Made by a program: the position numbers and the translations under genes
The notes under the pieces: model-generated
Database searches by the model: none
Seen by the model: only the letters and a program-made list of their open reading frames with translations
Told to the model about the DNA's origin: nothing
IMG/VR virus record: IMGVR_UViG_3300045988_140580
Origin: a virus
Reading direction: 5' to 3' (one strand)
DNA: 39,708 bases
Part shown: one piece after another, positions 1 through 39,708 of the stretch
How the letters are laid out: each line of letters opens with the position of its first letter
How positions within the stretch are numbered: position 1 is the first letter of the stretch

Positions 1-81
1 ATCACCGTCGTCTTTGGCACATCCATTGCGACCATCTTCGGCGTATTCCTCATTCCGATTCTGTTCATCATCGTAGAAAAT
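1..81. repeat. Left copy of 81-bp terminal direct repeat (identical to 39628-39708). Candidate phage DTR, circular-assembly overlap, or att core.
   Basis: Exact identity of 1-81 with 39628-39708, read directly. The repeat has a higher GC content and a C-ending codon bias unlike the phage genes, and it is open in + frame 1, where it encodes a hydrophobic helix. Confidence 0.9.
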
Positions 82-180: not shown

Positions 181-1263
181 TCACGGGTAACTCCATGTTA
201 CTCGGTTGTCTGTGGAGTGTGTGTAGTATTTCAGAGTAGTTTCTATACTACTGTGACCCATCAGTTTGCTTACTCTCATAACGTCTACATGTTTCTCAGT
301 TATGAGTAGGGTAGCAAAAGTATGTCTCATGTCGTACAGGTGGTGTCCTCTACCCAGTACGGCATGGGTATACTTTTTGAATCGCATATTTACATTATCG
401 ACACTCATATAACCATACTGGCTCTTGAAGGAATAGAAGATATTATCCTTTGGGAGCCTTTTTATATTACTTACTAACCACTTACCATACTGCTCTTTGT
501 CTATCGGTACTATCCTATAACTGCTATCCTGTGTCTTCATCCCATCCTGTAGTTTTCCTCTGAATCCCAGGGATTTGTTGAAGTTCACATAGTTTTCCGT
601 AACATCTTCCTTGGTAAGCGCGAGTATTTCCTGTGGTCGTGCCCCAGTTATCATACCGATTACTATGTATATTTGGTAGACTAGGGGAAGCTTAGTAGAC
701 AAAGTTTTTTTATCTAGCAGCTTACTGACTTCCTCACTGGAGAATGTACGTATGTGTCTTTTGGGTTTACCCTTGATGGTCCTTATGGCACCTCTGCTTG
801 TCATTGGATTATTATCAAGGTATCCCTCGTATACCGCGGTTTCCAGTATAGCTTTGAAGTTCTTTCTCCATCTTGACAGGGTAGAAGTAGCGTAGCCATG
901 GGAAGCCAGACCTAGGAAATACCTATTGATATCCTGTGTAGTCAGATCATAAAACTTTGTCTTAGCTAACTTACTGCCTACTACATGTTTGTTATAGAAA
1001 TGCTTGATACCATTTAAGGTAGACTCACGATACACATTTTCCTTCAGTTCTATGAAGTGTTCCCAATATTCCTCTATGGTAGTAGGGGTGAAGTACTTTA
1101 TGTTTGTTCCTCGTACCTTATCAAAAAACTGCTCAACTTCCTGTCGGGTATCACACGTTTTACTAACTCGCTTACCATTACCGATGCATATAGCACCTTT
1201 GAATTTTCCATTTGGTGTCCTTGTTATAGAACCAGTACCTTTTTCTCTTCTTATTCTTTTCAT
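181..1263 (-). CDS. int: Tyrosine recombinase / phage integrase
   Basis: 360-aa ORF. The C-terminal catalytic region reads HDMRHTFATLL...LMGHSSIETTLKYYTH (R..HxxR..Y tyrosine recombinase motifs), and ARPQEILAL supplies the box A arginine. An RBS GAAAGGTGA lies upstream on the minus strand. It is the only large gene on the minus strand. Confidence 0.93.
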   Translation of the reverse strand: MKRIRREKGTGSITRTPNGKFKGAICIGNGKRVSKTCDTRQEVEQFFDKVRGTNIKYFTPTTIEEYWEHFIELKENVYRESTLNGIKHFYNKHVVGSKLAKTKFYDLTTQDINRYFLGLASHGYATSTLSRWRKNFKAILETAVYEGYLDNNPMTSRGAIRTIKGKPKRHIRTFSSEEVSKLLDKKTLSTKLPLVYQIYIVIGMITGARPQEILALTKEDVTENYVNFNKSLGFRGKLQDGMKTQDSSYRIVPIDKEQYGKWLVSNIKRLPKDNIFYSFKSQYGYMSVDNVNMRFKKYTHAVLGRGHHLYDMRHTFATLLITEKHVDVMRVSKLMGHSSIETTLKYYTHSTDNRVTWSYP

Positions 1264-1525: not shown

Positions 1526-1722
1526 GTCTATCTATTGCTTTTATTTATGATACACACGGAGCCGTTGTATTGATGTTATCAGTTTTTTTAATTAGTTGAA
1601 TGAGTCAACTATATGGATACTCAAGGATATATGATGGAAACATTAAGATATATGAACGAATGTTCATGTGATATTAAAAATTGCTCTATAAAATATCTGT
1701 CTATATACATTAGAAATACTTA

Positions 1723-1875
1723 TCACGTACATCAGAAATATTTATAAGATACATCAATGTTACTTATAATATACATTGGAAATACTTATAACATACATAT
1801 TCCAGGCATGGAGTATACTTATGACAGACACAGGAAATACGTATGATAGACACAGAATATGTTGGGATACATGGC
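1723..1875. repeat. Iteron-like array: about 7 imperfect tandem copies of a 22-bp unit GAAATACTTATNANNTACATCA
   Basis: Units begin at about 1723, 1745, 1767, 1789, 1811, 1834 and 1855, for example GAAATACTTATCACGTACATCA, GAAATATTTATAAGATACATCA, GAAATACTTATAACATACATAT and GGAAATACGTATGATAGACACA. The array is AT-rich and non-coding, and lies between int and the repressor module. Confidence 0.7.
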
Positions 1876-2434: not shown

Positions 2435-2611
2435 TTATTGCTTTTTATTTTCAGTTATTAGAATATTTTCATTATCATTAACATATTTTGTAATATGTCG
2501 TGTTAAATATCCGCTTACAGTGTCGCCTTTTATTTTTAGTATTTTTTGAAATTTGTTTTTTAGTTCACTATCTATTCTTATTTGCATGAACTTTTCTTTT
2601 GTGTCTTTCAT
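2435..2611 (-). CDS. Small ribbon-helix-helix (Arc/Mnt/CopG-like) DNA-binding protein, 58 aa. Candidate lysogeny repressor. Not in ORF track (under 60 aa).
   Basis: Hand translation of the minus strand gives MKDTKEKFMQIRIDSELKNKFQKILKIKGDTVSGYLTRHITKYVNDNENILITENKKQ*. The pattern is a beta-strand (FMQIRIDSEL) with alternating hydrophobics, helix A, a G-D-T-V-S-G loop (the G-x-S/T-x-S RHH hallmark) and helix B. An RBS AGAAGGGAAG lies 9 nt upstream. It is divergent from the early operon, with operators between them. Confidence 0.6.
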   Translation of the reverse strand: MKDTKEKFMQIRIDSELKNKFQKILKIKGDTVSGYLTRHITKYVNDNENILITENKKQ

Positions 2612-2637
2612 ATAATATCACTTCCCTTCTAATATTC

Positions 2638-2665
2638 ATTATAGCAGGTTTTTTAAGTTGTGACA
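2638..2665 (-). promoter_or_regulatory. Sigma70-like promoter for the RHH gene (minus strand): -35 TTGTCA (2665..2660), 16-nt spacer, -10 TATAAT (2643..2638)
   Basis: Read on the reverse complement. The -35 overlaps the operator half-site at 2660-2676. Confidence 0.45.
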
Positions 2666-2676
2666 ATGTAGTAAAA
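2660..2676. promoter_or_regulatory. Operator-like site O1 (half-conserved): TGTGACAATGTAGTAAA
   Basis: Shares CAATGTAGTAA with O2 and O3. Overlaps the -35 of the leftward promoter. Confidence 0.45.
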
Positions 2677-2692
2677 AAAAACAAATTAGGTA

Positions 2693-2721
2693 TTGACTTT
2701 GTCACTACATTGTAGTAATAT
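2693..2721 (+). promoter_or_regulatory. Sigma70-like early promoter: -35 TTGACT (2693-2698), 16-17-nt spacer, -10 TAATAT/AATATA (2715-2721)
   Basis: Near-consensus hexamers read directly. Operator O2 lies inside the spacer. The promoter is upstream of the first early gene (ATG 2822). Confidence 0.6.
2700..2717. promoter_or_regulatory. Operator O2: GTCACTACATTGTAGTAA (perfect 6+1+6 palindrome ACTACA-T-TGTAGT)
   Basis: Palindrome read directly. Located in the spacer of the early promoter. Confidence 0.6.
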
Positions 2722-2780
2722 ATACTCAACGAAAGGGAACATATCAAAATATAAAGTTCCCAAAAATTTTTAACTTCTTA

Positions 2781-2797
2781 TGTCACTACAATGTAGT
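2781..2797. promoter_or_regulatory. Operator O3: GTCACTACAATGTAGTA (palindrome ACTACA-A-TGTAGT) in the early-transcript leader
   Basis: Second perfect copy of the O2 palindrome, about 25 nt upstream of the first early gene's RBS. Confidence 0.55.
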
Positions 2798-2821
2798 ACA
2801 ATCAAGAAAGGAAGGGTAAAC

Positions 2822-3193
2822 ATGGAAGAAGTAACAAAGGAAATGATAATGGACGCTTTGACTGATTATGTTTCTGAATTGTCTGAAGAAGACACAATTA
2901 CACTATGGAATGCCTATTGTGAAGACTACAACCAGATGCACCGATTCATTTATCTAAATGATTTTGACGAACTCGACAGCGTTTTTAAGTCACCTTCAGA
3001 AGCTTTGTATATGGCACAGTATTCACCGTATCACATCAACGACAGATATTTTACTTACAGTTCTTTTTGTGGGCTTATGTCTTTCAGTTTTCTTACAGAT
3101 GAAAATAGTCCGGTAGTAGTTGATGAATTAGTTAGCTACCTGATGAGTCAAAGAGCTGTATATATTTTAGTAAAAAGTCAGTTAGAAAGGTAG
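2822..3193 (+). CDS. Early protein, strongly acidic (about 22 D/E vs 7 K/R in 124 aa). Candidate DNA-mimic / anti-restriction protein (by composition only).
   Basis: ATG 2822 with RBS AAAGGAAGGG; the ORF-track start at 2780 is less likely. It is the first gene of the host-transcribed operon, the position of T7 gene 0.3 (Ocr). Confidence 0.6.
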   Translation: MEEVTKEMIMDALTDYVSELSEEDTITLWNAYCEDYNQMHRFIYLNDFDELDSVFKSPSEALYMAQYSPYHINDRYFTYSSFCGLMSFSFLTDENSPVVVDELVSYLMSQRAVYILVKSQLER

Positions 3194-3202
3194 GTAATTA
3201 CT

Positions 3203-3418
3203 ATGACACAGAGAATCACGGAAAAATTTTTAGATAACATGATTAAAAACATCAATAACAGAACTGGCAGAAAGTACTTCTTAGAATATGCATACGGTGG
3301 GGTAAAACTGGCGCATACATACGAAAACGGCGGATACACAGATGAAAGTTATAGAATGACAAAACGAGAAATGTATTATGTCCTAGATGCTTTACAGCAC
3401 TTCATCAATCACAATTAG
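3203..3418 (+). CDS. Hypothetical early protein (71 aa)
   Basis: ORF with RBS GAAAGGTAGG. No recognisable motif. Confidence 0.5.
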   Translation: MTQRITEKFLDNMIKNINNRTGRKYFLEYAYGGVKLAHTYENGGYTDESYRMTKREMYYVLDALQHFINHN

Positions 3419-3426
3419 TGGATTTT

Positions 3427-3480
3427 ACAGGGTGCCTTAGAAAACTAAGGCACTCGATAAAGGCCACTAGAAGCCTTTAG
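3427..3480 (+). other. Conserved intergenic RNA element, copy A: two stem-loops (GUGCCUUAG-AAAA-CUAAGGCAC; AAAGGC-CACUAGAA-GCCUUU)
   Basis: Paralogous to 4177-4230, with compensatory base changes that preserve both stems. Confidence 0.6.
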
Positions 3481-3507
3481 GCAGTTAGGTAGAAAGGAAG
3501 TAATATC

Positions 3508-3963
3508 ATGACAAGAATTAGCCTGTATCACGTAGAGTTAGTAAAAGATAGCAGCCATAACTATAACGTCTCAAGAGATATGTCTAGCCCGTATAATGTC
3601 ATTCATATGCTTGTAAATACATTGCATCTGGACAAACGCAACGTAGAAAATTTTGGCATGATTGCAGTTAATACGCAAAACAAATTAATAGCTGTACAGA
3701 TTTTAACGCAAGGATCTATCGATACATCTATAGCAAGTACTAGAGAAGTCTTTCAATGCGCTTTACTGCATAATGCACGTGCCATAATACTATTCCATAA
3801 TCATCCTTCCGGGAATTCTGGTCCTTCTAAAGAAGATATAGCAATAACTAAAAGGATAGTTAAAGCTGGGGAACTACTAGGTATTCCGGTATTGGACCAT
3901 GTGATTATAGGTAGTGAGAACGATTACTTTAGCATGAGAAGTGAGGGAATTATCAATGACTAA
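3508..3963 (+). CDS. RadC-like JAB/MPN-domain protein (DUF2466 family)
   Basis: Motif ILFHNHPSGNSGPSKEDIAITKRI matches the RadC-like HNHPSG...PS.xDxxxT signature. 151 aa. Confidence 0.85.
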   Translation: MTRISLYHVELVKDSSHNYNVSRDMSSPYNVIHMLVNTLHLDKRNVENFGMIAVNTQNKLIAVQILTQGSIDTSIASTREVFQCALLHNARAIILFHNHPSGNSGPSKEDIAITKRIVKAGELLGIPVLDHVIIGSENDYFSMRSEGIIND

Positions 3964-4180
3964 CAAAGAATTAGCAAGAAAAATATACGATACGGGGCGT
4001 AATGAAACAACTACAGGAAACTGGGTTTTTCACATAAGTGAGTTAGATGGCAGGACGCCAGAAGAAGGTATGTATATCCTGTTAGATGAGTATAGAGAAG
4101 ACATTTTAGACATAACGTGTACAGATACAGAACTGGATATCATTTTCGCATTAGCTGTTTGTCCTTATTTTCAAGAGTGA
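3956..4180 (+). CDS. Hypothetical early protein (74 aa)
   Basis: ATG 3956 preceded by GAGGGAA. It overlaps the end of the RadC-like gene. Confidence 0.5.
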   Translation: MTNKELARKIYDTGRNETTTGNWVFHISELDGRTPEEGMYILLDEYREDILDITCTDTELDIIFALAVCPYFQE

Positions 4181-4230
4181 ATTTAACAGAGTACCTTAGA
4201 TAACTAAGGTATTCGATTAAGTCCACTAGT
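4177..4230 (+). other. Conserved intergenic RNA element, copy B: GUACCUUAG-AUAA-CUAAGGUA(U); UAAGUC-CACUAGU-GACUUA
   Basis: Same architecture as copy A. The loop CACUAG is conserved while the stems co-vary. Confidence 0.6.
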
Positions 4231-4264
4231 GACTTATCACATGTAACCAGAAAGGATGATACAT

Positions 4265-4846
4265 ATGTTAGCACAGGAAATTTTAAAAGTATTAGCACTC
4301 GATATGACTGAAAAAGAAAAAGTAGAAAAAATCCAAAAACTATGCACCGATGATATTTATGTACACACATGTAGCAAGCCTGTAGGCAATCGGTTTAAAT
4401 TCATACAGAAAGAGTGTAAGAAGGCTAAAAGACCTTGCTTAACAAAGGTACACAGATCGGAAAAATATGGCCTAGTCTGGACCGATGCTTATGTATTGTG
4501 CACGTTTAGAGATGATACATTTCCTACTGATTTATTAGCAACAGAAAAGGAAAAACTAAATGTAGACAATGTTTTAAAGAGTGTAGGTAATGATAAAGCC
4601 AATGCAAGTGTTGAATACAAGGACGTAAAAGCACGGCTTGCTTGTCTATCGACGAAAAAAGAAAAAGAAGCGGACATAATCGAAATAGGGGATTCAATTT
4701 TCAAGACTTGCTTAGTTGACAAAGTTTTCAAATTTTATGGCCTGGACAAACTGAATTTACATACAAAAAATAGCTGTGTTGCATACGGTTATACAGAAAA
4801 TGGTGATGCATTCTTAATTTGTCCGATGAAAAAGGAAGTTAAATAG
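4265..4846 (+). CDS. Hypothetical early protein (193 aa), Cys/Lys-rich, no recognised motif
   Basis: ATG 4265 with RBS AGAAAGGA at correct spacing; the track start at 4256 is too close to the RBS. It is the last gene before the terminator hairpin. Confidence 0.55.
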   Translation: MLAQEILKVLALDMTEKEKVEKIQKLCTDDIYVHTCSKPVGNRFKFIQKECKKAKRPCLTKVHRSEKYGLVWTDAYVLCTFRDDTFPTDLLATEKEKLNVDNVLKSVGNDKANASVEYKDVKARLACLSTKKEKEADIIEIGDSIFKTCLVDKVFKFYGLDKLNLHTKNSCVAYGYTENGDAFLICPMKKEVK

Positions 4847-4951
4847 ATATGAGTACAAAAGAGAAGATAGAAGGATATGCATACTACATCATACTTTGTC
4901 TCTTGTGCATGTTGTGTGAATACCTAGATAAAAACTTAATATAGTTAAGCT

Positions 4952-5005
4952 AAAAATAGCGTGTACTTAGAAATTTTTAAGTCACTCTAAGTACACGCTA
5001 TTTTT
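4952..5005 (+). terminator. Perfect 19-bp inverted repeat (AAAAATAGCGTGTACTTAG ... CTAAGTACACGCTATTTTT) with a 16-nt loop, followed by a T-run. Intrinsic terminator and/or RNase III-type site.
   Basis: Arms at 4952-4970 and 4987-5005 read directly. Located between the early genes and the RNAP gene. Confidence 0.75.
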
Positions 5006-5035
5006 ATATATAAATGCATGAACAAACGTTCTGTT

Positions 5036-5058
5036 AATTGTCCCACTATTAAGAGAAA
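5036..5058 (+). promoter_or_regulatory. Phage-RNAP promoter P1 (variant): ATTGTCCCACTATTAAGAGAAAT, followed by a degenerate copy ATTTGTCCCTTATTTAGAAAGG
   Basis: Member of a 4-copy family sharing ATTGTCCCACTAT(T/C)AAGAGA. Immediately upstream of the RNAP start codon. Confidence 0.6.
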
Positions 5059-5095
5059 TATAATTTGTCCCTTATTTAGAAAGGTGGTTAAAAAT

Positions 5096-7636
5096 ATGTA
5101 TACGCTGGAACAACAATTGGAAGTTGAAAAAATGTATAAGACAGTAGCGGAAGATTCCTTTTTTTCAAAATTGAATCAAGACAAGCAAGAAGGTAACTAT
5201 TCTAGAAGTTCCATAGGTAAAGGAATTATAAAGCAGGTTATGGCACCTTTTACAAAAAACATACACATAAAACTACAGGAAGTCACACTGAGTAAAAAAG
5301 GAGTAAAACCTAAATATTATGCAGTTCTCAAAAAATTCATGGATTACTATATAAACGACATGGATACTTTTGTTAATACATTAGCATTACAAACAATAAA
5401 GGTAGTAGTAAACAACATTGCTACCAATAGAAAAAACTGCAATATGATAGCTAGTGTTATAGGTACAGAACTACAAGATGAAGTAGAATTATATGCCTTT
5501 ATGCATACTGTCGAACATGCAGAAACAAGATATAGTAAAGACATAAATAAACGTGTAGGGAGGAGTTTCAAGAAGAATTTTATCTTACATGCATATCAAG
5601 GGAATGATTTTGTATTTCCTAAATTCAAAAAAACGGAGCTTACAGCTTTAGGCATGGAAATGATAGCTATACTTACAGAATCAGTAGACTTTTTCTACAT
5701 AGCTATGACAGGCGAAAAAGGTTTATTGGAGTTACATCCTAGTGATATGTTTTTACAAGCTGTCATAAAGTCGGAAGAAAACATTATGTCTAGGACGGTT
5801 AAATTAGTACCAACTATAATACCTCCTAAAGCATGGAAAGGAATATTTGAAGGAGGGTATTATGGGGCGTTAGGTATCCAAAATAGATTTATGCGTCATC
5901 ATCCCTATATGAAAGGCACAAAAACATTAAGTAGATACCTGGCACGGCTTAATGAATTAGACCTAACACCTATTTACAGAGCAGTTAATAGGATCCAGAA
6001 CACTGCCTATCATATCAATAGTTATATGCTCGATGTAGTAGGTTCTATATTAGAAAGCGGTGGAAATAGGGCAGGTATACCCCAGATGAAACCATATGAA
6101 AAACTTCCGGCTTTTCCGTATGGAGACAAAGAGATAGAAGAGTCTGAGGAATTGCAAGTGCTATTTAAAGAACATAAGAAGAAAATGATAACCATGATAC
6201 ATAAAGAAAACCAGAGACAAGGCAAGGCGCTAAGGTGCACCATGGTGTACAAATTAGCTAAAGATTTTAGCAGATTTGAGACAATATACTTCCCAATGAA
6301 TATTGATTTTCGAGGGCGTATATATCCCATTCCTACGGGTCTTAATCCACAGGGGGATGATATGACAAAAGGTTTACTGGAATATGCTTTTCCTAAAGCT
6401 GTGTCTAGTGAAGATTCCTTGCAATGGCTTATGATTCACGGTGCAGGGTTAGCAGGGCACGATAAAATTTGTCTGGATGAACGTGTACAATGGGTACAGG
6501 ATAACAAAGATAACATTGTAAATAGTGTCGATAATCCCATAGGGTACACATGGTGGCAAGAGCAGGATAAACCTTTCCAGTTCCTAGCGTGGTGCAGGGA
6601 ATACGTCAATGCCTTAGCTTATATGTTTGCACACAATGGCTCTTTAATAGGGTTCGAGTGTCATTGTGTAATAGCATATGACGGTACCTGCTCTGGACTT
6701 CAGCATTACTCTGCATTACTGAGAGATCCTGTTGGTGGCAGTGCGGTAAATCTGGTGGACCATGATAAGCCTAGTGATATTTATCAGGAAGTAGCAAATA
6801 AAGTTCTGATATCAGTAGAGAATGATTCTCATAATGGCACTATAGAAGATACAGACAGAAAAGGAAATAAGATACCTGGTACAAAAGCAATAGCGGAAGC
6901 ATGGCTTGCACATGGTATCACACGGAAAGTTTGTAAACGCCCTGTAATGACACTAGCCTATGGATCTGGGCAATATGGTTTTGGGGACCAGATTTTTGAA
7001 GATACGACAAAAGACAATCCCTTCTTTAATGGTGTAGGTGACTTCAGGGCAGCTAGATATATGGCTAGTAAGGTATGGGAGACTGTACAGACAACTGTAG
7101 TTTCTGCTACACAGGGCATGTCTTTTCTTAAGGAGTTAGCTAATGAGTTAGCGTCTGATAATATGCCTGTAGAATGGATTACACCGTTGGGATTGCCTGT
7201 ACAACAGATGTATCTTGATTTACATACGGAATGCTTCAGGTTACGGTTTGGTGGTGCCAGTGTGCGCTATCGTATATATGTTACAGAGCCGAAGGAAGGG
7301 GAAGACACAGACAAAAAGAAGCAGGTGTCTGGTGTTGCTCCTAACTTCATTCACTCCCTAGATGCTACTCACTTGATGATGTCTGTTAATGCTTGTGAGA
7401 ATGTGTCTAACTTCACTACGGTCCATGATTCATTTGGTACGTCATTAGGTGAAGCAGAGGAGCTGAGAGAAGTTATTAGACAGCAAATGGTTAAATTGTA
7501 TAGTGAAAATGAGCCACTAAAAGATTTTAAAGCTCATGCTGAAGAATTGCTAGGCAAACATATTGATATAGATTTACCCCGAAAAGGCACATTAGATATC
7601 AATTCTATTTTGTCTAGCAAATTTGTGTTTCACTAA
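5096..7636 (+). CDS. T7-like single-subunit DNA-dependent RNA polymerase
   Basis: The 846-aa protein has TTVHDSFGT (T7 RNAP motif C HDSFGT) and a palm/fingers region similar to T7 gene 1. The start is ATG 5096 after AAAGGTGG; the track's upstream ATG 5018 would place promoter P1 inside the gene. Confidence 0.95.
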   Translation: MYTLEQQLEVEKMYKTVAEDSFFSKLNQDKQEGNYSRSSIGKGIIKQVMAPFTKNIHIKLQEVTLSKKGVKPKYYAVLKKFMDYYINDMDTFVNTLALQTIKVVVNNIATNRKNCNMIASVIGTELQDEVELYAFMHTVEHAETRYSKDINKRVGRSFKKNFILHAYQGNDFVFPKFKKTELTALGMEMIAILTESVDFFYIAMTGEKGLLELHPSDMFLQAVIKSEENIMSRTVKLVPTIIPPKAWKGIFEGGYYGALGIQNRFMRHHPYMKGTKTLSRYLARLNELDLTPIYRAVNRIQNTAYHINSYMLDVVGSILESGGNRAGIPQMKPYEKLPAFPYGDKEIEESEELQVLFKEHKKKMITMIHKENQRQGKALRCTMVYKLAKDFSRFETIYFPMNIDFRGRIYPIPTGLNPQGDDMTKGLLEYAFPKAVSSEDSLQWLMIHGAGLAGHDKICLDERVQWVQDNKDNIVNSVDNPIGYTWWQEQDKPFQFLAWCREYVNALAYMFAHNGSLIGFECHCVIAYDGTCSGLQHYSALLRDPVGGSAVNLVDHDKPSDIYQEVANKVLISVENDSHNGTIEDTDRKGNKIPGTKAIAEAWLAHGITRKVCKRPVMTLAYGSGQYGFGDQIFEDTTKDNPFFNGVGDFRAARYMASKVWETVQTTVVSATQGMSFLKELANELASDNMPVEWITPLGLPVQQMYLDLHTECFRLRFGGASVRYRIYVTEPKEGEDTDKKKQVSGVAPNFIHSLDATHLMMSVNACENVSNFTTVHDSFGTSLGEAEELREVIRQQMVKLYSENEPLKDFKAHAEELLGKHIDIDLPRKGTLDINSILSSKFVFH

Positions 7637-7654
7637 GCAAGAACATAGAGTTTT

Positions 7655-7720
7655 GCAGAAGCACGTATAGAGTAGAAGCATAGGTTTAGACAAAAGTCAA
7701 GACTTCTGCTTCTACTTTTT
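7655..7720 (+). terminator. Hairpin(s) plus T-run after the RNAP gene (AGTAGAAGCA ... TGCTTCTACTTTTT; alternative GCAGAAG/CTTCTGC)
   Basis: 10-bp stem at 7671-7680 / 7707-7716 followed by TTTTT. Confidence 0.55.
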
Positions 7721-7743
7721 AATTGTCCCACATATACTGAAAA
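7721..7743 (+). promoter_or_regulatory. Promoter half-site variant AATTGTCCCACATATACTG, in tandem 27 bp upstream of P2
   Basis: Shares ATTGTCCCAC with the promoter family but diverges downstream (CATATA instead of CTATTAAGAGAGA). The same tandem arrangement recurs at 39358. Confidence 0.4.
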
Positions 7744-7746
7744 TCT

Positions 7747-7778
7747 TATTGTCCCACTATTAAGAGAGAAGGGAAAGG
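7747..7778 (+). promoter_or_regulatory. Phage-RNAP promoter P2: TATTGTCCCACTATTAAGAGAGAAGGGAAAGG
   Basis: Consensus family member. The CACTAT core matches T7 promoters (TCACTATAGGGAGA). It occupies the position of T7 phi1.1. Confidence 0.75.
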
Positions 7779-7884
7779 AATACCTTAGGTATATTAAGTA
7801 TTCCTTAGTTACTTTCTTGGTTACTTACTTAGTAGTTAGTTAGTAGTATTCCTAAGGAATACTAGGAAGGAGCAGAGAAGAGAA
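7776..7884 (+). other. Structured 5' leader downstream of P2 (12-bp stem AGTATTCCTTAG ... CTAAGGAATACT around a loop rich in TAGT/TTAG repeats)
   Basis: Inverted repeat at 7797-7808 / 7851-7862. An alternative pairing is GGAATAC with GTATTCC. Confidence 0.45.
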
Positions 7885-8307
7885 ATGTACAGCGTAGGAG
7901 ATTATGTAGTTATTCGAGAAATACCGGAAACCAATCGTTTTTCTAAATATAACGGTTTGGTTGCTAAAATTATCGGTAAACCTTACTCACAAATTTTAGT
8001 CTATGAAGTATGTATCTGTGGGTTAGAAGATGAAGGTAGTATCTATGTTGAAAGTGTTAATTTAGAACCATATGAAGATGTAGATTGCTACCATGACTCC
8101 CACTACAGAAACAGTGTCTTAGAACCCATTCTGGTAATGCAGAGTATGTTCACGCATGAAGAGTTCATAGGATTTCTCAAGGGAAACATTCTGAAATACA
8201 GATTACGCCTGGGACATAAAGACGATATCCAAAAGGAAATGGACAAGATACAGAGATACGAACAGTGGTTAGCAGAAGCAGAGGAGGGTAAGAAAATTAC
8301 GATATGA
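7885..8307 (+). CDS. Hypothetical protein (140 aa), first gene after P2
   Basis: ORF with RBS GGAAGGAG. No confident motif. Confidence 0.55.
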   Translation: MYSVGDYVVIREIPETNRFSKYNGLVAKIIGKPYSQILVYEVCICGLEDEGSIYVESVNLEPYEDVDCYHDSHYRNSVLEPILVMQSMFTHEEFIGFLKGNILKYRLRLGHKDDIQKEMDKIQRYEQWLAEAEEGKKITI

Positions 8308-8789
8308 TTTACAAAATTGAATTTCATAAATTACGGGATGATGTAGTAGTTCCACAGATTCAGACGGAGGGTTCAGCAGGTGCAGACTTAGTGGTACCAG
8401 ATGATACCTATATCCCACCTTTCCATAGTGTGGGTCACGGAACGCTTGTGCCTTTAGGGTTCTCTTTAGATATCCCTAAAGGAATGCAGGTACACATTAT
8501 GTTACGGTCAAGTGTAGGGCTGAATACTCCATTACGATTATCTAATGGTGTCGGTTTGATTGACTCAGATTACAAAGGCGAAATTTGTCTGCTATTAGAT
8601 AATTTGTCTAAAAATATCGTTTTTATCAAAAGTGGGACTCGAATAGCACAAATGCTACCTTTTTGCAGTGCGAAGTGGGAACTTTCTTCTATTGTCCCAC
8701 TATCAAGAGAGAAGAGGGATAAAATCCCAATCCAGAAAAGAACAGGTGGATTCGGTTCCACCAACAGAAAAAGGAGCGATAGCGAATGA
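8304..8789 (+). CDS. dut: dUTP pyrophosphatase (dUTPase)
   Basis: Trimeric dUTPase motifs: GSAGADL (motif 2), GLIDSDYKGE (motif 3) and RTGGFGSTN (motif 5). 161 aa. Promoter P3 is embedded in its 3' part. Confidence 0.85.
   Translation: MIYKIEFHKLRDDVVVPQIQTEGSAGADLVVPDDTYIPPFHSVGHGTLVPLGFSLDIPKGMQVHIMLRSSVGLNTPLRLSNGVGLIDSDYKGEICLLLDNLSKNIVFIKSGTRIAQMLPFCSAKWELSSIVPLSREKRDKIPIQKRTGGFGSTNRKRSDSE
8690..8721 (+). promoter_or_regulatory. Phage-RNAP promoter P3: TATTGTCCCACTATCAAGAGAGAAGAGGGATA (inside dut, upstream of SSB, like T7 phi2.5)
   Basis: Family member with one substitution (T to C). Confidence 0.7.
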
Positions 8790-9328
8790 AAATCAAAGGG
8801 AAAGCATTTTGGGCAAAAGTAAGGACACCAGAAACATATCAGGGAAATCCTGTGGGATACTCTGTACAGGTTGAAATGCCTGAGGAAAATCTTCAGCGCA
8901 TGAAGGATTACTTTACTGACAAATGCAAAAATGAACAGTTTACAGACAAACGTTGTGATGGTGAAATCACACTGCCAATCAAGGTCGATGAAACCACAGG
9001 TAGAAAAACGGTAAAGGTAAAGACTAAACACTTCTATGTCGAAAAAGCTACAGGCAAGCAGGTTAATAAGGTAATCCCTATTTACAACGAATATGGTGAA
9101 ATTATTCCGGAAGATGTACTTATTGGGAACGGCTCTGATGTAGAAGTAGCCTGTAACTGCAAATTCTTCTATGATTCTGCTAAGAAGTGGGGCGTACGGC
9201 TCTACTTACAGAGCATGATGGTCACTAACCTTGTCAAATACAGTACAGACGGTTCAGATGAATTCGAGTTTAAGAAACGTCCTGAAGTGGAAGAAGCAGA
9301 CGTGCAGGAAGATGAGGTGGATTTCTAA
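8786..9328 (+). CDS. T7 gp2.5-like single-stranded DNA-binding protein
   Basis: 180-aa protein. The acidic C-terminal tail ends in ...EEADVQEDEVDF, with a terminal Phe as in gp2.5. Gene order matches T7. Confidence 0.8.
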   Translation: MKIKGKAFWAKVRTPETYQGNPVGYSVQVEMPEENLQRMKDYFTDKCKNEQFTDKRCDGEITLPIKVDETTGRKTVKVKTKHFYVEKATGKQVNKVIPIYNEYGEIIPEDVLIGNGSDVEVACNCKFFYDSAKKWGVRLYLQSMMVTNLVKYSTDGSDEFEFKKRPEVEEADVQEDEVDF

Positions 9329-12197: not shown

Positions 12198-12458
12198 ATG
12201 ACGTTTACATTACATGTTATTAAAGGTTGTGCATACTGTGATGCTATTTTGTCTTTATATCCATCATTGGTAAAGAGATATCCTAAGTTATATTTCAATA
12301 TGAAATGTGATGAAAGTGCAAATGAGGGTACAGTATATCCATATATTGAAGCATATCATCTTGATGTTGACGGTGTGTATAGAGACAAAAAAGATTCCAT
12401 GCTATACATCAATGATGTTGTAGATTTTGTAGAAAGGAGTCTTAATAAAGGTAAATGA
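12198..12458 (+). CDS. Glutaredoxin/NrdH-like thioredoxin-fold protein
   Basis: CAYC (CxxC) after the first beta-strand. Lies between nrdG and nrdD. ATG 12198 follows AGGTGG. Confidence 0.5.
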   Translation: MTFTLHVIKGCAYCDAILSLYPSLVKRYPKLYFNMKCDESANEGTVYPYIEAYHLDVDGVYRDKKDSMLYINDVVDFVERSLNKGK

Positions 12459-14218
12459 TTTTGAACTTAACTCCTGATCAGATACAGGGGAAGATTGATT
12501 ATATTAAGAAGTATTCACAAGCGTCCAATAGTGCTGATGGTTCATTAGTTGATAGTAATGCTAATGTAGACACAAAAAACATAGGCATTCTGGAAGCGGA
12601 ACTGTATAAGCCAGAGACGATTCAGATTAATAGAGAGATTGTGAAGCAAAAGTTAGACAGCATGTTTCCTGGACTAGGAGCACAGTATATCAAGGACATA
12701 GAAAGTCACTTTATTTATATCCATGATGAAACGTCCTTGCGTCCCTACTGTGCTTCTATTACCTTGTTTCCTTTCCTGCTAAATGGTACTAAACCTCTGG
12801 GTGGGACAAGCAAAGCACCAAAGAACCTGCATAGTTTTTGTGGATCATTCATTAATCTTGTCTATCAGGTAGCGTCTGGTTTTGCAGGTGCTGTGGCTAC
12901 TGTCGAATTTCTGCTATATTTTGATTATTTTGCGAGAAAGACATATGGCAGTGCTTACATAACTACTAACAAGAAAGAGGTAGAACAGGCCCTACAGGGT
13001 GTTGTATATGCCTTGAATCAGCCTGCTAGTGCACGGGGAAATCAGAGCGTGTTCTGGAATATCTCTGTATTAGACAAGCATTATTTTGAGCACCTATTTG
13101 GTACATTTCATTTTCCGGATGGTTCACAGGCTATGTATTATGGTTCATTCCATGATTTGCAGGAGCTTTTTATGGAGTGGTTCAGGAAAGAGAGGGAGAA
13201 AGAGCTACTGACATATCCCGTTTTGACAGCTTCTATGCTTATCAACGATGAGGGCGTTCCTGTAGACACAGAATTTGCAGAGATGTGTGCTGAGGAAATG
13301 TCCAAAGGTCTGAGCTTCTTTGTCTATGAATCACAAAGTGTTGACTCACTTGCTTCCTGTTGTCGATTGCGCAATGAACTGTCTGACAATACGTTTAGCT
13401 ATACACTGGGAGCAGGTGGGGTATCTACAGGTTCCATACAGGTTATTACACTGAACATGAACAGACTCGTACAACAGAAAGACCATACTGTGTCTGACAT
13501 TGTAAAGCGTGTTCATAAGTACCTTCTGGCATACAGGGCAGTGATTGAAGATTACATGAATAGTGGTTTGTTGCCAGCGTATACAGCTGGGTTTATTAAT
13601 CTGGACAAGCAGTTTCTTACTGTTGGTATCAATGGCATGTTGGAAGCTTCTGAGTTCCTGCACGGTAAACCAGACATAGACTTCTATAGAGATACATTGA
13701 AGACTATCTACTTGTTGAATAAAGAGGATGGTCAAAGATACAAAGTTAAATATAATACGGAGTTTGTCCCCGCAGAAAATTTAGGTGTGAAGAATGCAAA
13801 GTGGGACAAAGAAGATGGCTTAGTGGTTCCTAGAGACTGCTATAATTCCTATTTCTTTCCTGTAGAGAGCAGTGAGTACAGCATTATAGACAAACTTGAT
13901 ATGCATGGTTTACGTACTACAGCGTTTCTTGACGGGGGAGCAGCTTGTCATCTTAATTTGGCGCAGTTATTGACTAAGAAACAGGCGTATCAACTAATGT
14001 GTCTTGCAGGTAAGAAGGGCGTTAATTACTGGACATTTAACTGCTTAATGACAATTTGTGACGATTGTGGATATATTGATGTGAACACGGAAAGGCAGTG
14101 CACGAAATGTGGAAGTACCAATGTTGGTTATGCCACTCGTGTCATTGGCTATCTCAAACGTATTGATAGTTTTTCCACAGCACGTCAGAAGGAAGCTTTT
14201 AAACGACATTATACTTAA
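12455..14218 (+). CDS. nrdD: Anaerobic (class III) ribonucleoside-triphosphate reductase NrdD
   Basis: C-terminal zinc ribbon CDDCGY...CTKCGS followed by the glycyl-radical motif ATRVIGYL (RVxGY). Size 587 aa, adjacent to the NrdG-like gene. Confidence 0.75.
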   Translation: MILNLTPDQIQGKIDYIKKYSQASNSADGSLVDSNANVDTKNIGILEAELYKPETIQINREIVKQKLDSMFPGLGAQYIKDIESHFIYIHDETSLRPYCASITLFPFLLNGTKPLGGTSKAPKNLHSFCGSFINLVYQVASGFAGAVATVEFLLYFDYFARKTYGSAYITTNKKEVEQALQGVVYALNQPASARGNQSVFWNISVLDKHYFEHLFGTFHFPDGSQAMYYGSFHDLQELFMEWFRKEREKELLTYPVLTASMLINDEGVPVDTEFAEMCAEEMSKGLSFFVYESQSVDSLASCCRLRNELSDNTFSYTLGAGGVSTGSIQVITLNMNRLVQQKDHTVSDIVKRVHKYLLAYRAVIEDYMNSGLLPAYTAGFINLDKQFLTVGINGMLEASEFLHGKPDIDFYRDTLKTIYLLNKEDGQRYKVKYNTEFVPAENLGVKNAKWDKEDGLVVPRDCYNSYFFPVESSEYSIIDKLDMHGLRTTAFLDGGAACHLNLAQLLTKKQAYQLMCLAGKKGVNYWTFNCLMTICDDCGYIDVNTERQCTKCGSTNVGYATRVIGYLKRIDSFSTARQKEAFKRHYT

Positions 14219-21743: not shown

Positions 21744-22736
21744 ATGGCAAATTTAACAAATATTTCTCAGCCCGGGCTTAATCAGGGGCAGTCTGATGCT
21801 TTGCAGGGTTTTCTTAAAGTATTCAGTGGTGAAGTTATTTCTGCATTCGATAGAGCTTCTAAAAGTGTGAATAATCATATCGTTCGTACTATTTCCAGTG
21901 GCAAGTCAGCAAGCTTCCCTGTAATGGGTCGGGCGACTGCTCACTATCTTGCACCGGGCCAGTCTTTGGATGACGTACGAGAAGCCATTCCGCATAACGA
22001 AAAAGTTATTGGTATTGATGGCTTGCTTACTTCTGACCAGTTGATTACTGACATTTATGAAGCTATGTCTCACTTTGATGTACGACAGGAATATTCCAAA
22101 CAGATGGGTGAAGCACTTGCTTTGTCTGCCGATGGTGCTATTCTTGCTGAAATTGCTAAACTGGCTATTGCTAATACTGAAAACATTACAGGTCTTGGTA
22201 AAGGTATTATCATTGAGAAAAAGCTGGCTTCTGGTGACATTGGTATTACGGAAGCTGAAGGTAAGATGATTGTACAGATGCTTCTCGAACTGAAAGCTAA
22301 GTTTTCTAATCAGTACGTACCCAATGATGAACGCTATGTCTATATGAAACCAGAAGGGGTAGCAGCTCTCATTAATTCGTGGAATGCTATCAACCGTGAC
22401 TATGGTGCTGTTGGTACTATTGTTGATGGGAACATTACCAAACTCGCAGGATTCAATATCATTGAAGTTCCTCATCTTACTATTGGCGGAGCAGATGGTG
22501 AACATGTCTTGCGGTCTGGTGTTGCTCATGATTTCCCGTCTGCATATAAAGACAAAACCGTATTTGTCGCCGCTCATCATACTGCTGTTGGTACAGTTAA
22601 ACTGAAAGACCTTGCTGTAGAAACTGCCCGTCGTATCGAATACCAGGCGGATCAGGTAGTTGGTAAGTATTCTATGGGACACGGTGGTTTGCGTCCGGAA
22701 GCTTGCGCAATCGGTACTATTTCTGCTTCTGTATAA
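21744..22736 (+). CDS. Major capsid protein, T7 gp10A-like
   Basis: SSGKSASFPVMGRA...AHYLAPGQSLDD and the C-terminal MGHGGLRPEA match T7 gp10. Confidence 0.95.
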   Translation: MANLTNISQPGLNQGQSDALQGFLKVFSGEVISAFDRASKSVNNHIVRTISSGKSASFPVMGRATAHYLAPGQSLDDVREAIPHNEKVIGIDGLLTSDQLITDIYEAMSHFDVRQEYSKQMGEALALSADGAILAEIAKLAIANTENITGLGKGIIIEKKLASGDIGITEAEGKMIVQMLLELKAKFSNQYVPNDERYVYMKPEGVAALINSWNAINRDYGAVGTIVDGNITKLAGFNIIEVPHLTIGGADGEHVLRSGVAHDFPSAYKDKTVFVAAHHTAVGTVKLKDLAVETARRIEYQADQVVGKYSMGHGGLRPEACAIGTISASV

Positions 22737-22750
22737 GTTTATTTATGGTT

Positions 22751-22792
22751 GGGAGAGGTTCACTCTTAGGGTTCCTCTCCCTATTTATTTAT
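22751..22792 (+). terminator. Intrinsic terminator after the capsid gene (GGGAGAGG ... CCTCTCCC stem followed by TATTTATTTATCT), analogous to T7 Tphi
   Basis: 8-bp GC-rich stem at 22751-22758 / 22774-22781 followed by a T-rich tract. Confidence 0.75.
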
Positions 22793-37324: not shown

Positions 37325-37371
37325 AAGGCTCCCTCTAGGTGTAATTACCTATGGAGCCTTTTATTATTTTT
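37325..37371 (+). terminator. Interrupted hairpin (AAGGCTCC..TAGGT..ACCTA..GGAGCCTT) followed by TTATTATTTTT
   Basis: Arms at 37325-37332 / 37353-37360 with an inner TAGGT/ACCTA pairing, then a T-run. Confidence 0.6.
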
Positions 37372-37651: not shown

Positions 37652-39335
37652 TGACGCTAAGAAAGATTTTCGTAAGTTTCTGTTCATTTTATGGGATGAG
37701 ATTGCGCTCCCTGAGCCTACAGGCATACAATATGCCATAGCGTCATTATTGATGAAATGCCCACAGAAACGATTCATTATAGAAGGATTCCGTGGTGTAG
37801 CTAAGTCGTTTATTACATGTGCTTATATTGTTTGGTGTCTATGGAATAACCCGCAGCTGAAATGCTTGATAGTGTCTGCTAGTAAGGATAGAGCGGATGC
37901 TAATGCGGTATTCATACGACGTATCATTTACTTACTAGACTTTTTGTCTGATCTTAAGCCTAGAGATGGTCAACGTAATACACAGAACCTTTTTGATGTT
38001 GGCTTAGCAATACCTGATATTTCTCCTTCTGTAAAATCCGTTGGTATTACAGGTCAGATAACAGGCAGCCGTGCAGACATATTGGTTGCAGATGACGTAG
38101 AGATACCAAACAATTCCAGTACACAGGTCCGTAGAGACAAACTATTCGAGGATGTAAAAGAATTTGATGCTATTATAAAGCCGGGGGATAGTAGTAAGAT
38201 TATATACCTTGGAACTCCCCAAAATGAGATGTCACTATATAATGAATTACAGAATCGTGGCTATGGTGTCTTTGTATTCCCTATCGTATATCCGGAAACA
38301 CCAGAGGAACGTGAATACTATGGAGACAAATTAGCTCCCTTTATTGCTGAACCGTATGATAGAAATCCGGAGCTATACGCAGGCAAGCCAACAGATCCTA
38401 AACGATTCCCAGAAGAAGAAATTGAAGAACGTAGATTATCCTACGGTAAGGCAGGGTTTTCTTTACAGTTCAAACTGAATACTAACTTGTCTGACTATGA
38501 AAAGTATCCATTAAAAGTACAAGACCTGATTGTCTCAGAAGTGGATTTGGATGAAAGTTCACTGAAGTGGGCATGGGCAAGCAGTTATGAGTACAGATTA
38601 AACTCATTGCCTTGTGTAGCAGTCAAAGGTGATTATTTCTATAGAGAGTTCGGTAGAAGTAAGGAGACAGCTAAATATACAGGTACCGTTATGTCTATAG
38701 ACCCATCTGGTAGGGGAACAGATGAAACTGCTTACTCTATTGTGAAATACCTGAATGGTTATCTTTTTGTAGTAGAAGTAGGTGGTTATTCAGAAGGATA
38801 CTCTGATTCTGTACTGACACAGTTAGCAAATAAAGCAAAAGTGTATGGAGTAAATGAGATTGTCGTAGAAGCTAACTTCGGGGATGGCATGTTTACACAG
38901 TTATTCAAGCCCATACTGAATAAAATACATCCATGCTCCATTCAAGAAGTGAAGAACACTAAGCAGAAAGAAGCTCGTATTATTGATACACTGGAACCTG
39001 TTATGATGAGACACAAGTTAATAGTAGCAGAGTCAGTCATTAAAGATGATTATATAATATATGAAAATAAAGGACAGAATTACTCTCTGATATATCAACT
39101 GACACGCCTAAGCAGAGACAAAGGTTCACTATCACATGATGACCGCCTGGACTCCTTAACAATGGCTGTGTCGTATTGGTTAGAAGTTATGGATAGGGAT
39201 GAGCAAGTAGGGATGGATGAACAACTGGATGACTTTCTAGAAGCAGCTATGGATGATGACAGGGGCATCTTCTCACTGATGTATGGTAATACCGATATGA
39301 ATAAAAATAGGAATATAATGAATAAAAAATGGTAG
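37620..39335 (+). CDS. Terminase large subunit, T7 gp19-like. The conserved N-terminus is encoded upstream of the track's start, with no canonical start codon.
   Basis: Very high identity to T7 gp19 (FRGVAKSFITCAYIVW, LIVSASKDRADAN, SPSVKSVGITGQITGSRADI, IYLGTPQ, YGKAGFSLQF, IDPSGRGTDETAY). The frame is open from 37620 and encodes LLTQWTQEQIDDAKKDFRKFLFILW, which aligns with T7 MSTQ...DFVAFLFVLW. The first in-frame ATG is at 37752. Confidence 0.9.
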   Translation: MLTQWTQEQIDDAKKDFRKFLFILWDEIALPEPTGIQYAIASLLMKCPQKRFIIEGFRGVAKSFITCAYIVWCLWNNPQLKCLIVSASKDRADANAVFIRRIIYLLDFLSDLKPRDGQRNTQNLFDVGLAIPDISPSVKSVGITGQITGSRADILVADDVEIPNNSSTQVRRDKLFEDVKEFDAIIKPGDSSKIIYLGTPQNEMSLYNELQNRGYGVFVFPIVYPETPEEREYYGDKLAPFIAEPYDRNPELYAGKPTDPKRFPEEEIEERRLSYGKAGFSLQFKLNTNLSDYEKYPLKVQDLIVSEVDLDESSLKWAWASSYEYRLNSLPCVAVKGDYFYREFGRSKETAKYTGTVMSIDPSGRGTDETAYSIVKYLNGYLFVVEVGGYSEGYSDSVLTQLANKAKVYGVNEIVVEANFGDGMFTQLFKPILNKIHPCSIQEVKNTKQKEARIIDTLEPVMMRHKLIVAESVIKDDYIIYENKGQNYSLIYQLTRLSRDKGSLSHDDRLDSLTMAVSYWLEVMDRDEQVGMDEQLDDFLEAAMDDDRGIFSLMYGNTDMNKNRNIMNKKW

Positions 39336-39357
39336 ATTTCTGGTATCCCAGAAATCT

Positions 39358-39380
39358 TATTGTCCCACATATAGGAAAGT
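39358..39380 (+). promoter_or_regulatory. Promoter half-site variant TTATTGTCCCACATATAGGAAAG, in tandem 28 bp upstream of P4
   Basis: Same arrangement as 7721-7743. Confidence 0.4.
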
Positions 39381-39384
39381 CGCT

Positions 39385-39418
39385 TATTGTCCCACTATTA
39401 AGAGAGAGAAGGGAAGAC
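39385..39418 (+). promoter_or_regulatory. Phage-RNAP promoter P4: TTATTGTCCCACTATTAAGAGAGAGAAGGGAAGAC (right-end promoter, like T7 phiOR)
   Basis: Full family member downstream of the terminase gene. Confidence 0.7.
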
Positions 39419-39627
39419 AAAGGAAAACTAAAGTATCTAAGGAACTCTAATTATACTAAGTATACATATGTACTCAGTTAGCTGTCCTTTAGCGCACTGA
39501 AGTATTCCTGTATCCTTCAGTATCCCTAAAGTATCAAACACTATATCCCATATCGGATAGACAAGGAATAAGCAACTAACAGCTAAACACTTACCACTAA
39601 TTACACACTCATAGGAAGCCTATGGGC

Positions 39628-39708
39628 ATCACCGTCGTCTTTGGCACATCCATTGCGACCATCTTCGGCGTATTCCTCATTCCGATTCTGTTCATCATCG
39701 TAGAAAAT
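39628..39708. repeat. Right copy of the 81-bp terminal direct repeat
   Basis: Identical to 1-81. Confidence 0.9.

Follow-up and report, generated by a model that had tools for sequence, protein, structure and literature searches.

A putative terminator followed by a probable cognate phage promoter upstream of the gene encoding RNA polymerase in an integrase-bearing T7-like prophage

The DNA analyzed here is IMG/VR record IMGVR_UViG_3300045988_140580 (39,708 nucleotides (nt), hereafter the window), which contained a full T7-like genome spanning attL to attR. We examined the boundary between its early genes and the gene of its single-subunit RNA polymerase (RNAP), where a long hairpin, a promoter-like motif and the RNAP start codon followed one another on the + strand (Table 1). 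The RNAP could be aligned end to end with T7 gp1 at 35% identity, and its best identity to any RNAP among 50,697 phage records was only about 34%. A megablast search of positions 4000-9000 against phage records gave zero matches. By scanning genome, viral and metagenome collections, we collected 20 related loci, with RNAPs that were 55-87% identical. Six sub-lineages were distinguished, with the window itself grouped in the window type: the window type (window, L002, L009 and L019), the L001 type (L001, L003-5 and L010), the L007 type (L007, L015, L020 and L021), the integrase-less L006 type (L006, L013 and L014), the L011 type (L011 and L012) and the L016 type (L016). Homologue alignments to the RNAP started at residues 1-6, and a Shine-Dalgarno sequence was present before RNAP in all relatives. 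The stretch 5018-5095 was considered non-coding because 1-nt and 5-nt insertions or deletions separated the relatives. Given the alignment starts, the Shine-Dalgarno sequence and the non-coding upstream stretch, ATG 5096 was taken as the real start of the gene, as an earlier note on this DNA had proposed.

The arms of the hairpin lay at 4951-4971 and 4986-5006 (TAAAAATAGCGTGTACTTAGA and TCTAAGTACACGCTATTTTTA). They were 21 nt long and 100% complementary, and the loop between them was 14 nt. The earlier note had described a perfect hairpin of 19 base pairs (bp) with a T-run; both the perfect repeat and the T-run were found, and the arm length had been slightly undercounted. The outer five pairs joined an A-run with the T-run (T5, 5001-5005), which was followed by ATATATAAAT, a stretch beginning with ATATAT. 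The RNA fold reached -29 kcal/mol and a z value of -6.7. Of 200 shuffled sequences, not one folded equally well. It was observed that a hairpin occurred at the end of the early genes in all related loci, 60-190 nt upstream of the RNAP start. When compared with shuffled sequences, the hairpins of the relatives gave z values from -4.9 to -7.7, with the exception of L006 (z = -2.7). An Rfam scan of 2600-5300 returned only sub-threshold, microRNA-like matches to generic hairpins and no known RNA family.

The sequence of the 5' arm was TAGCGTGTACTTAGA in the window type, TAGCAGGTAACTGAA in the L007 type, AGCAGGTTACTATAC in L016 and AAAATAGAACATAG in L011. Between the hairpins of L005 and the window, one compensatory pair (T>C/A>G) was found. 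RNAalifold, applied to a MAFFT alignment of ten representatives, called 16 pairs, and changes on both sides were observed in 12 of them. In an independent pair count, 97.4% of the cells were paired and the covariation score was 0.558, compared with 0.205 for shuffled data (0 of 500 shuffles were as high). As a control, the 3' partner was slid by one to three columns, and both-side changes were then seen in at most five pairs. The tail CTATTTTTAT was kept in every integrase-bearing lineage (as TTTTTG in L016) while the stems turned over. In L002, the upstream A-run was gone and the T-run was retained, which is suggestive of termination on the + strand. The T-run was eroded in the integrase-less lineage, reading TTTAT in L006 and being absent from L014; this erosion accompanied integrase loss in a single lineage, an association that is suggestive. 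Collectively, selected pairing, a free stem sequence and a fixed + strand U-run are the pattern expected of an intrinsic terminator, and an intrinsic terminator is the best reading of the hairpin on this comparative evidence.

Downstream of the hairpin, the 18-mer TTGTCCCACTATTAAGAG was found at 5038. Two further exact copies were present, at 7749 and 39387, as well as a copy at 8692 that differed by one mismatch; all lay on the + strand, and the three exact occurrences compare with a chance expectation of 0.07. The seven family copies detected by a position weight matrix scan of the window were confined to the + strand and made up four sites (5038/5065, 7723/7749, 8692 and 39360/39387), three of which were tandem pairs with a spacing of 26-27 nt. 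Within the motif, a T7-like CACTAT core precedes a start region rich in purines (AGAGAGA), and alignment to the T7 consensus placed the probable transcription start at about 5052-5053. The promoter copies occupied T7-like positions. In six lineages, the copy upstream of RNAP matched the promoter type of its own genome. The consensus was TTGTCCCACTATTAAGAGAGA in the window and L002, TTGTCCCACATAGTAGAGAGA in the L001 type (L001 and L003-5), TTGTCACACATACAGAGG in L006, TTGTCCCACAGAGTAGAGG in L007, AATTAATGTGTCCAGTATATGGGG in L011/12 and TTGTCCAGTAGTATAGAG in L016. The RNAP-upstream copy was essentially the consensus in the window, L001 and L011 types, and a diverged variant of it in the L006, L007 and L016 types. 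These results suggested that the motif at 5038 is very likely a genuine promoter for the phage's own RNAP, and the variant family promoter that the earlier note had placed about 40 nt upstream of the RNAP gene was thereby borne out. About 40 nt separate this promoter from the start codon and this stretch holds no terminator, so its transcripts must encode RNAP.

Two further conserved elements were found around this promoter. The degenerate TTGTCCC box at 5065, 27 nt past the first box, was kept in window-, L001- and L002-type genomes and was absent from the L006, L007, L011 and L016 types. In the window, no second copy of the 5020-5037 element, or of the palindrome CCAAACAnnTGTTTGG of the L006/L007 types, was found above chance; CCAAACAnnTGTTTGG-like palindromes precede several other promoters in L006 and L007. 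Either the 5065 box or the 5020-5037 element could bind a regulator or RNAP itself. The TTCTGTT within the latter element was also considered as a T7 class II pause signal, which reads ATCTGTT, and was dropped as the relatives vary at this place (TTCTATT, TTCTACT and TTCTGGT).

The RNAP alignment was then compared with the promoter types. The specificity loop was identical in the window, L001 and L002. The residue aligned with T7 N748 (columns about 785-800; window residues about 712-722) was R in every genome with promoters of the TTGTCCC form; in L006, where the promoters carry TTGTCAC, it was Q. The N748 position lies where T7 versus T3 promoter specificity is set. This single co-occurring change makes the residue a candidate specificity determinant for orthogonal RNAP/promoter pairs.

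Table 1. Positions of the features discussed in the text (window coordinates; ORF, open reading frame; aa, amino acids).
Feature	Position	Strand	Evidence or remarks
Long hairpin, putative intrinsic terminator closing the early operon	4951..5006	+	Repeat finder, RNA folding
Element GAACAAACGTTCTGTTAA between hairpin and promoter	5020..5037	+	Conserved in window-, L001-, L002-, L006- and L007-type lineages
Predicted phage-RNAP promoter of the RNAP gene	5034..5058	+	TTAATTGTCCCACTATTAAGAGAAA; core TTGTCCCAC at 5038-5046
Second, degenerate promoter-like box	5061..5085	+	TTGTCCC at 5065-5071, without the invariant AC; inside the predicted 5' untranslated region
Shine-Dalgarno sequence	5081..5087	+	AAGGTGG, 8 nt before ATG 5096
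T7-type single-subunit RNA polymerase, 846 aa	5096..7636	+	Pfam RNA_pol, E = 2e-105; PHROG 414, E = 7e-227
Hairpin with T5, putative terminator closing the RNAP unit	7669..7720	+	-29.6 kcal/mol, z = -5.3
Tandem promoters before DNA-metabolism genes	7721..7771	+	TTGTCCCACATATA (7723) and TTGTCCCACTATTAAGAGAGA (7749)
Fourth promoter copy	8690..8714	+	One mismatch; within dUTPase gene end
Right-end module	39334..39409	+	10-bp hairpin 39334-39357; tandem promoters 39360 / 39387 toward attR
Putative lysis/lysogeny switch	2638..2798	.	Function predicted from sequence only
Candidate prophage repressor, 58 aa	2435..2611	-	Weak PHROG 582 'Arc-like repressor' match, E = 3e-4 (ribbon-helix-helix)
Early operon	2780..4944	+	Presumed host-polymerase transcribed
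Early ORFs	2780-3193, 3203-3418, 3508-3963 (RadC-like, JAB domain), 3941-4180, 4256-4846, 4849-4944	+	
att core	1..81 = 39628..39708	.	Exact 81-bp direct repeat; repeat search, both window ends
Tyrosine integrase	181..1263	-	Pfam Phage_integrase, E = 7e-16
Iteron-like array	1695-1852		Six to seven 22-bp direct repeats, consensus about TACTTATnAnnTACAnnnGAAA; between integrase and 145-aa predicted membrane/secreted protein

Upstream of the early operon, the putative switch region contained divergent sigma-70-type promoters, one on the minus strand (2666..2638, TTGTCA-17-TATAAT) and one on the plus strand (2699..2726, TTGTCA-16-TATACT). Two 18-bp palindromic operators (TGTCACTACA[T/A]TGTAGTA) were found at 2700-2717 and 2781-2798, with a half-site near 2659. 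The immunity region was mosaic, being swapped in L001-L005 with flanks still 92-98% identical. The last early ORF (31 aa, MSTKEKIEGYAYYIILCLLCMLCEYLDKNLI) is hydrophobic and stops 7 nt upstream of the hairpin; it was kept in L001-L005 with a variable N-terminus. L016 showed a compact order: two operators came first, a single early gene stood behind them, and then came a hairpin with its T-run, a variant of the phage promoter, an ORF of 61 aa and RNAP, which appears to be the same terminator-promoter-RNAP logic in a shorter form. The second hairpin, downstream of the RNAP gene, was conserved in L006 and L007 with a different stem.

Based on these comparisons, we consider it probable that 4951-5095 is a transcription-unit boundary, in which a terminator is followed by a cognate phage promoter, so that RNAP would be expressed by read-through and would then drive its own gene. 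Upon infection or induction, the host polymerase would initiate at the operator-controlled early promoter (~2699-2726) and transcribe the early genes, and the majority of these early transcripts would stop at the hairpin and U-run at 4951-5006. Rare read-through would yield the first RNAP molecules. From the promoter at 5034-5058, with a start near 5052, these would transcribe an mRNA that has a short leader and includes both the Shine-Dalgarno sequence and the RNAP gene, resulting in positive feedback, and this mRNA would terminate at the second hairpin and U-run (7669-7720). In a lysogen, the early promoter would be repressed and the terminator would filter residual transcription. In this inferred scheme, which takes in termination, read-through, initiation at 5052/5053, feedback and any bistability, the RNAP gene would be an 'autogene' that is bracketed by terminators and amplified through positive feedback. 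The need for read-through, the self-amplification and the bistability are plausible and are consistent with the model published for phage LUZ100.

LUZ100 is a temperate T7-like Pseudomonas phage, in which ONT-cappable-seq mapped the promoter phi1 directly upstream of RNAP (Putzeys et al. 2023, mSystems, PMC10134795). Its host-promoter-driven unit is closed by terminator T4, and sporadic host read-through followed by positive feedback was proposed; in addition, a MarR-like repressor was proposed to block phi1 in lysogeny, and MarR sites were proposed to flank phi1 (PMC10134795). At the level of sequence and comparison, the window shares three core features with LUZ100: its T7-like genome bears an integrase, a putative terminator precedes RNAP, and the cognate promoter lies immediately upstream of that gene. 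The two differ in several respects. The MarR model is reportedly that of Boeckman et al. 2022, and no match to MarR was found among the scanned window proteins, in which the candidate repressor is the 58-aa Arc-like protein. The upstream unit of LUZ100 comprises MarR and the integrase in the orientation of RNAP, whereas the window integrase lies on the opposite strand. The window has a second putative terminator after the RNAP gene, and its host is most probably a Negativicute (Megasphaera) rather than Pseudomonas. A literature search found no natural example of RNAP autoregulation besides LUZ100 and no paper on Megasphaera T7-like prophages. The window module thus reads, by comparison, as a distant further instance of the LUZ100-type design and not as a new principle.

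Several observations weigh against this reading. The combination of a 14-nt loop with a 16-21-bp stem is unusual for intrinsic terminators, whose loops are typically 3-8 nt. In the relatives the loops measured 13-17 nt or more, and the loop length across the lineages ranged from 13 to about 25 nt. A simple terminator scan did not call the 4951-5006 hairpin because its loop exceeds the 3-8-nt limit of that scan. The switch operator (ACTACANTGTAGT) was searched for near the RNAP promoter and was not found there, its palindromes being confined to 2704 and 2785 in the switch region; in LUZ100 the repressor sites are proposed to flank phi1, whereas the only operators of the window are those of the early promoter, located about 2.3 kb upstream. 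The hairpin-then-promoter arrangement also occurred after RNAP (7669-7718, 7723/7749) and at the right end of the genome, so the earlier note's view of the hairpin as a special insulator of the RNAP gene was not upheld, and the arrangement may serve to delimit transcription units in general and not specifically to gate RNAP. The integrase-less loci L006, L013 and L014 retained the hairpin and the promoter, and the module is therefore not confined to lysogenic genomes. The earlier note had presented the device as suited to a phage that must keep RNAP silent in a lysogen; this was supported by the integrase, the 81-bp att repeat and the Megasphaera prophage, and was limited by the integrase-less lineage. 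Finally, a perfect TATAAT was present at 5059-5064 with TTGTCC 15 nt upstream, which might allow some host transcription of RNAP without read-through in the window genome only.

A more elaborate scheme was also considered, which we regard as rather unlikely. The gene would be an insulated autogene without an operator of its own, silenced by repression 2.3 kb upstream together with termination, and the 5065 box would be a brake through self-binding of the polymerase. Fast positive and slower negative feedback would then give an excitable commitment switch.

Another explanation, which appears improbable, is that the hairpin is mainly an element of RNA processing or stability, such as an RNase III site like T7 R1 or a 3' protective stem, and that the early genes and RNAP form one host-transcribed operon. 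RNase III sites of the R1 kind are long intercistronic hairpins (at least about 20 bp) that usually have an internal loop and lack a U-run. The perfect 21-bp duplex is long enough for RNase III, and the large loop is unusual for a terminator; the stem is perfect, however, and the U-run is conserved. Two more long hairpins, at 3416-3469 and 4171-4232, were found between the early genes, as at T7 processing sites. These are paralogous (83% identical; -30 and -26 kcal/mol), imperfect and without a T-run; they recall the sites at which RNase III processes T7 transcripts and fit that pattern better than the 4951 hairpin does. The latter and its counterparts in five integrase-bearing lineages kept CTATTTTTAT despite stem turnover, and the loss of the A-run with retention of the T-run in L002 also argues for termination, although processing and termination roles can coexist in one hairpin.

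It appears similarly improbable that a host promoter between the hairpin and the ATG gives the first RNAP, with the phage promoter only sustaining expression after host shut-off. T7 offers a precedent in its minor host promoter C (3113), which closely precedes gene 1 (3171), and the TATAAT at 5059-5064 would be the corresponding candidate in the window. With its 15-nt spacing, this TATAAT was not called by a sigma-70 scan at standard spacing, which found no host promoter between the hairpin and ATG 5096, and the TATAAT was missing at the aligned position in L001-L005, L006 and L007.

It is very unlikely that the TTGTCCC motifs near RNAP mainly prime replication, like the T7 primary origin (phi1.1A/B and phiOL), with no regulation of RNAP: T7 origin promoters flank gene 1, and tandem promoters with repeated AAGTATTCCTTAG-like motifs follow RNAP in the window (7723-7865), but the 5038 copy lies close to the RNAP start with no intervening terminator, a placement conserved in six lineages. 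Equally remote is an action of the inverted repeat as DNA, as a dimeric-regulator palindrome or cruciform serving as roadblock or operator; the palindrome is perfect and symmetric half-site changes would also mimic covariation, but four unrelated stem sequences occurred among genomes with otherwise conserved neighboring genes, the loop length was variable, the switch-region operators were unrelated in sequence to the hairpin arms, and the divergence of the stems with pairing and U-run kept argues against a sequence-specific protein site.

The boundary reading, with a putative terminator and a cognate promoter before RNAP, was further compared with T7, which is strictly lytic. In both, the RNAP gene ends the host-transcribed early region and is closely preceded by a structured RNA element, which in T7 is the RNase III site R1. 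Tandem promoters directly after the RNAP gene correspond to phi1.1A/B, and T7 has phiOL (405) upstream of the whole early region. In T7, unlike the window, no terminator or phage promoter lies between the early genes and gene 1, and the host terminator TE lies after gene 1.3. The contrast drawn by the earlier note, in which T7 gene 1 belongs to the host-transcribed early operon, was overstated in view of phiOL and promoter C. T7 class I (Tphi-type) and bacterial intrinsic terminators consist of a stable stem-loop and an immediate U-run, as in the window. The stem of ~16-21 bp is closer to Tphi than to typical bacterial terminators, whereas the loops of all lineages are larger than usual. An engineered T7 'autogene', with a T7 promoter driving gene 1, was reportedly described by Dubendorff and Studier in 1991. 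It shares with the window a cognate promoter directly before a single-subunit RNAP gene, an autocatalytic and highly leak-sensitive arrangement. The T7 autogene is synthetic and controlled by a lac operator and lysozyme, whereas that of the window occurs naturally, is conserved and would be guarded by the putative terminator upstream of it.

The promoters and hairpins elsewhere in the window were also inspected. Ahead of the structural genes (7885-39335, including the larger late intergenic gaps), the search detected no promoter of the family, so that the promoters at 7749 and 8692 alone appear to serve about 30 kb. A hairpin with a T-rich tail at ~22751-22790 follows the capsid gene (21744-22736), as Tphi follows T7 gene 10, and the search of late-region gaps showed another hairpin near 37330. 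The right-end hairpin (39334-39357) has its T-run on the minus strand. After excision and circularization, the integrase gene would have this hairpin downstream of it, with attP in between; in the integrated state the two are apart. This topology resembles lambda sib retroregulation. In the prophage, the right-end promoters face outward, over attR and toward host DNA. On the circular molecule, transcription from them would run antisense across the integrase and repressor genes before entering the early operon, which gives them a phiOL-like position. Just past the promoters at 7723/7749 and 39360/39387, AAGTATTCCTTAG/CCTAAGGAATACT-like repeats and palindromes were found at 7775-7865 and 39430-39550, and CCTAAGTATT motifs occurred at the equivalent place in L006 and L007. 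These repeat clusters may constitute an origin of replication comparable to the one at phi1.1A/B in T7.

The window was identified as an attL-to-attR prophage because its bases 1-81 recur exactly at 39628-39708. In L001, the 81-bp att core was the 3' end of an RND/AcrB-type efflux gene (Megasphaera flank, L001 1-1145), and comparison with this locus indicates that the prophage inserts at the end of an RND/AcrB-type efflux pump gene and restores that gene end. The nearest genomic relative was L001, an integrated prophage in Megasphaera sp. AM44-1BH, and the host of the window prophage is most probably a Megasphaera-like Negativicute living anaerobically in the gut. PHROG matches were found in T7 order, all on the + strand, to a gp2.5-like single-stranded DNA-binding protein, primase/helicase, DNA polymerase, portal, capsid, tail tube, fibre and large terminase. 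An NrdD-like anaerobic ribonucleotide reductase gene was present at 12455-14218, which fits an obligately anaerobic host. In the integrase-less L006, L013 and L014, the terminase gene was followed directly by tandem promoters and early genes.

The sub-lineages offer six candidate orthogonal RNAP/promoter pairs, with matched terminators, for synthetic biology. T7-like phages were long regarded as strictly lytic, and the temperate members have to keep a highly active, self-sufficient RNAP silent in the lysogen. The design before RNAP was kept in six sub-lineages despite turnover of both the hairpin and the promoter sequences. In summary, this locus provides independent comparative support, from a distant lineage, for the model of read-through and feedback proposed for LUZ100.

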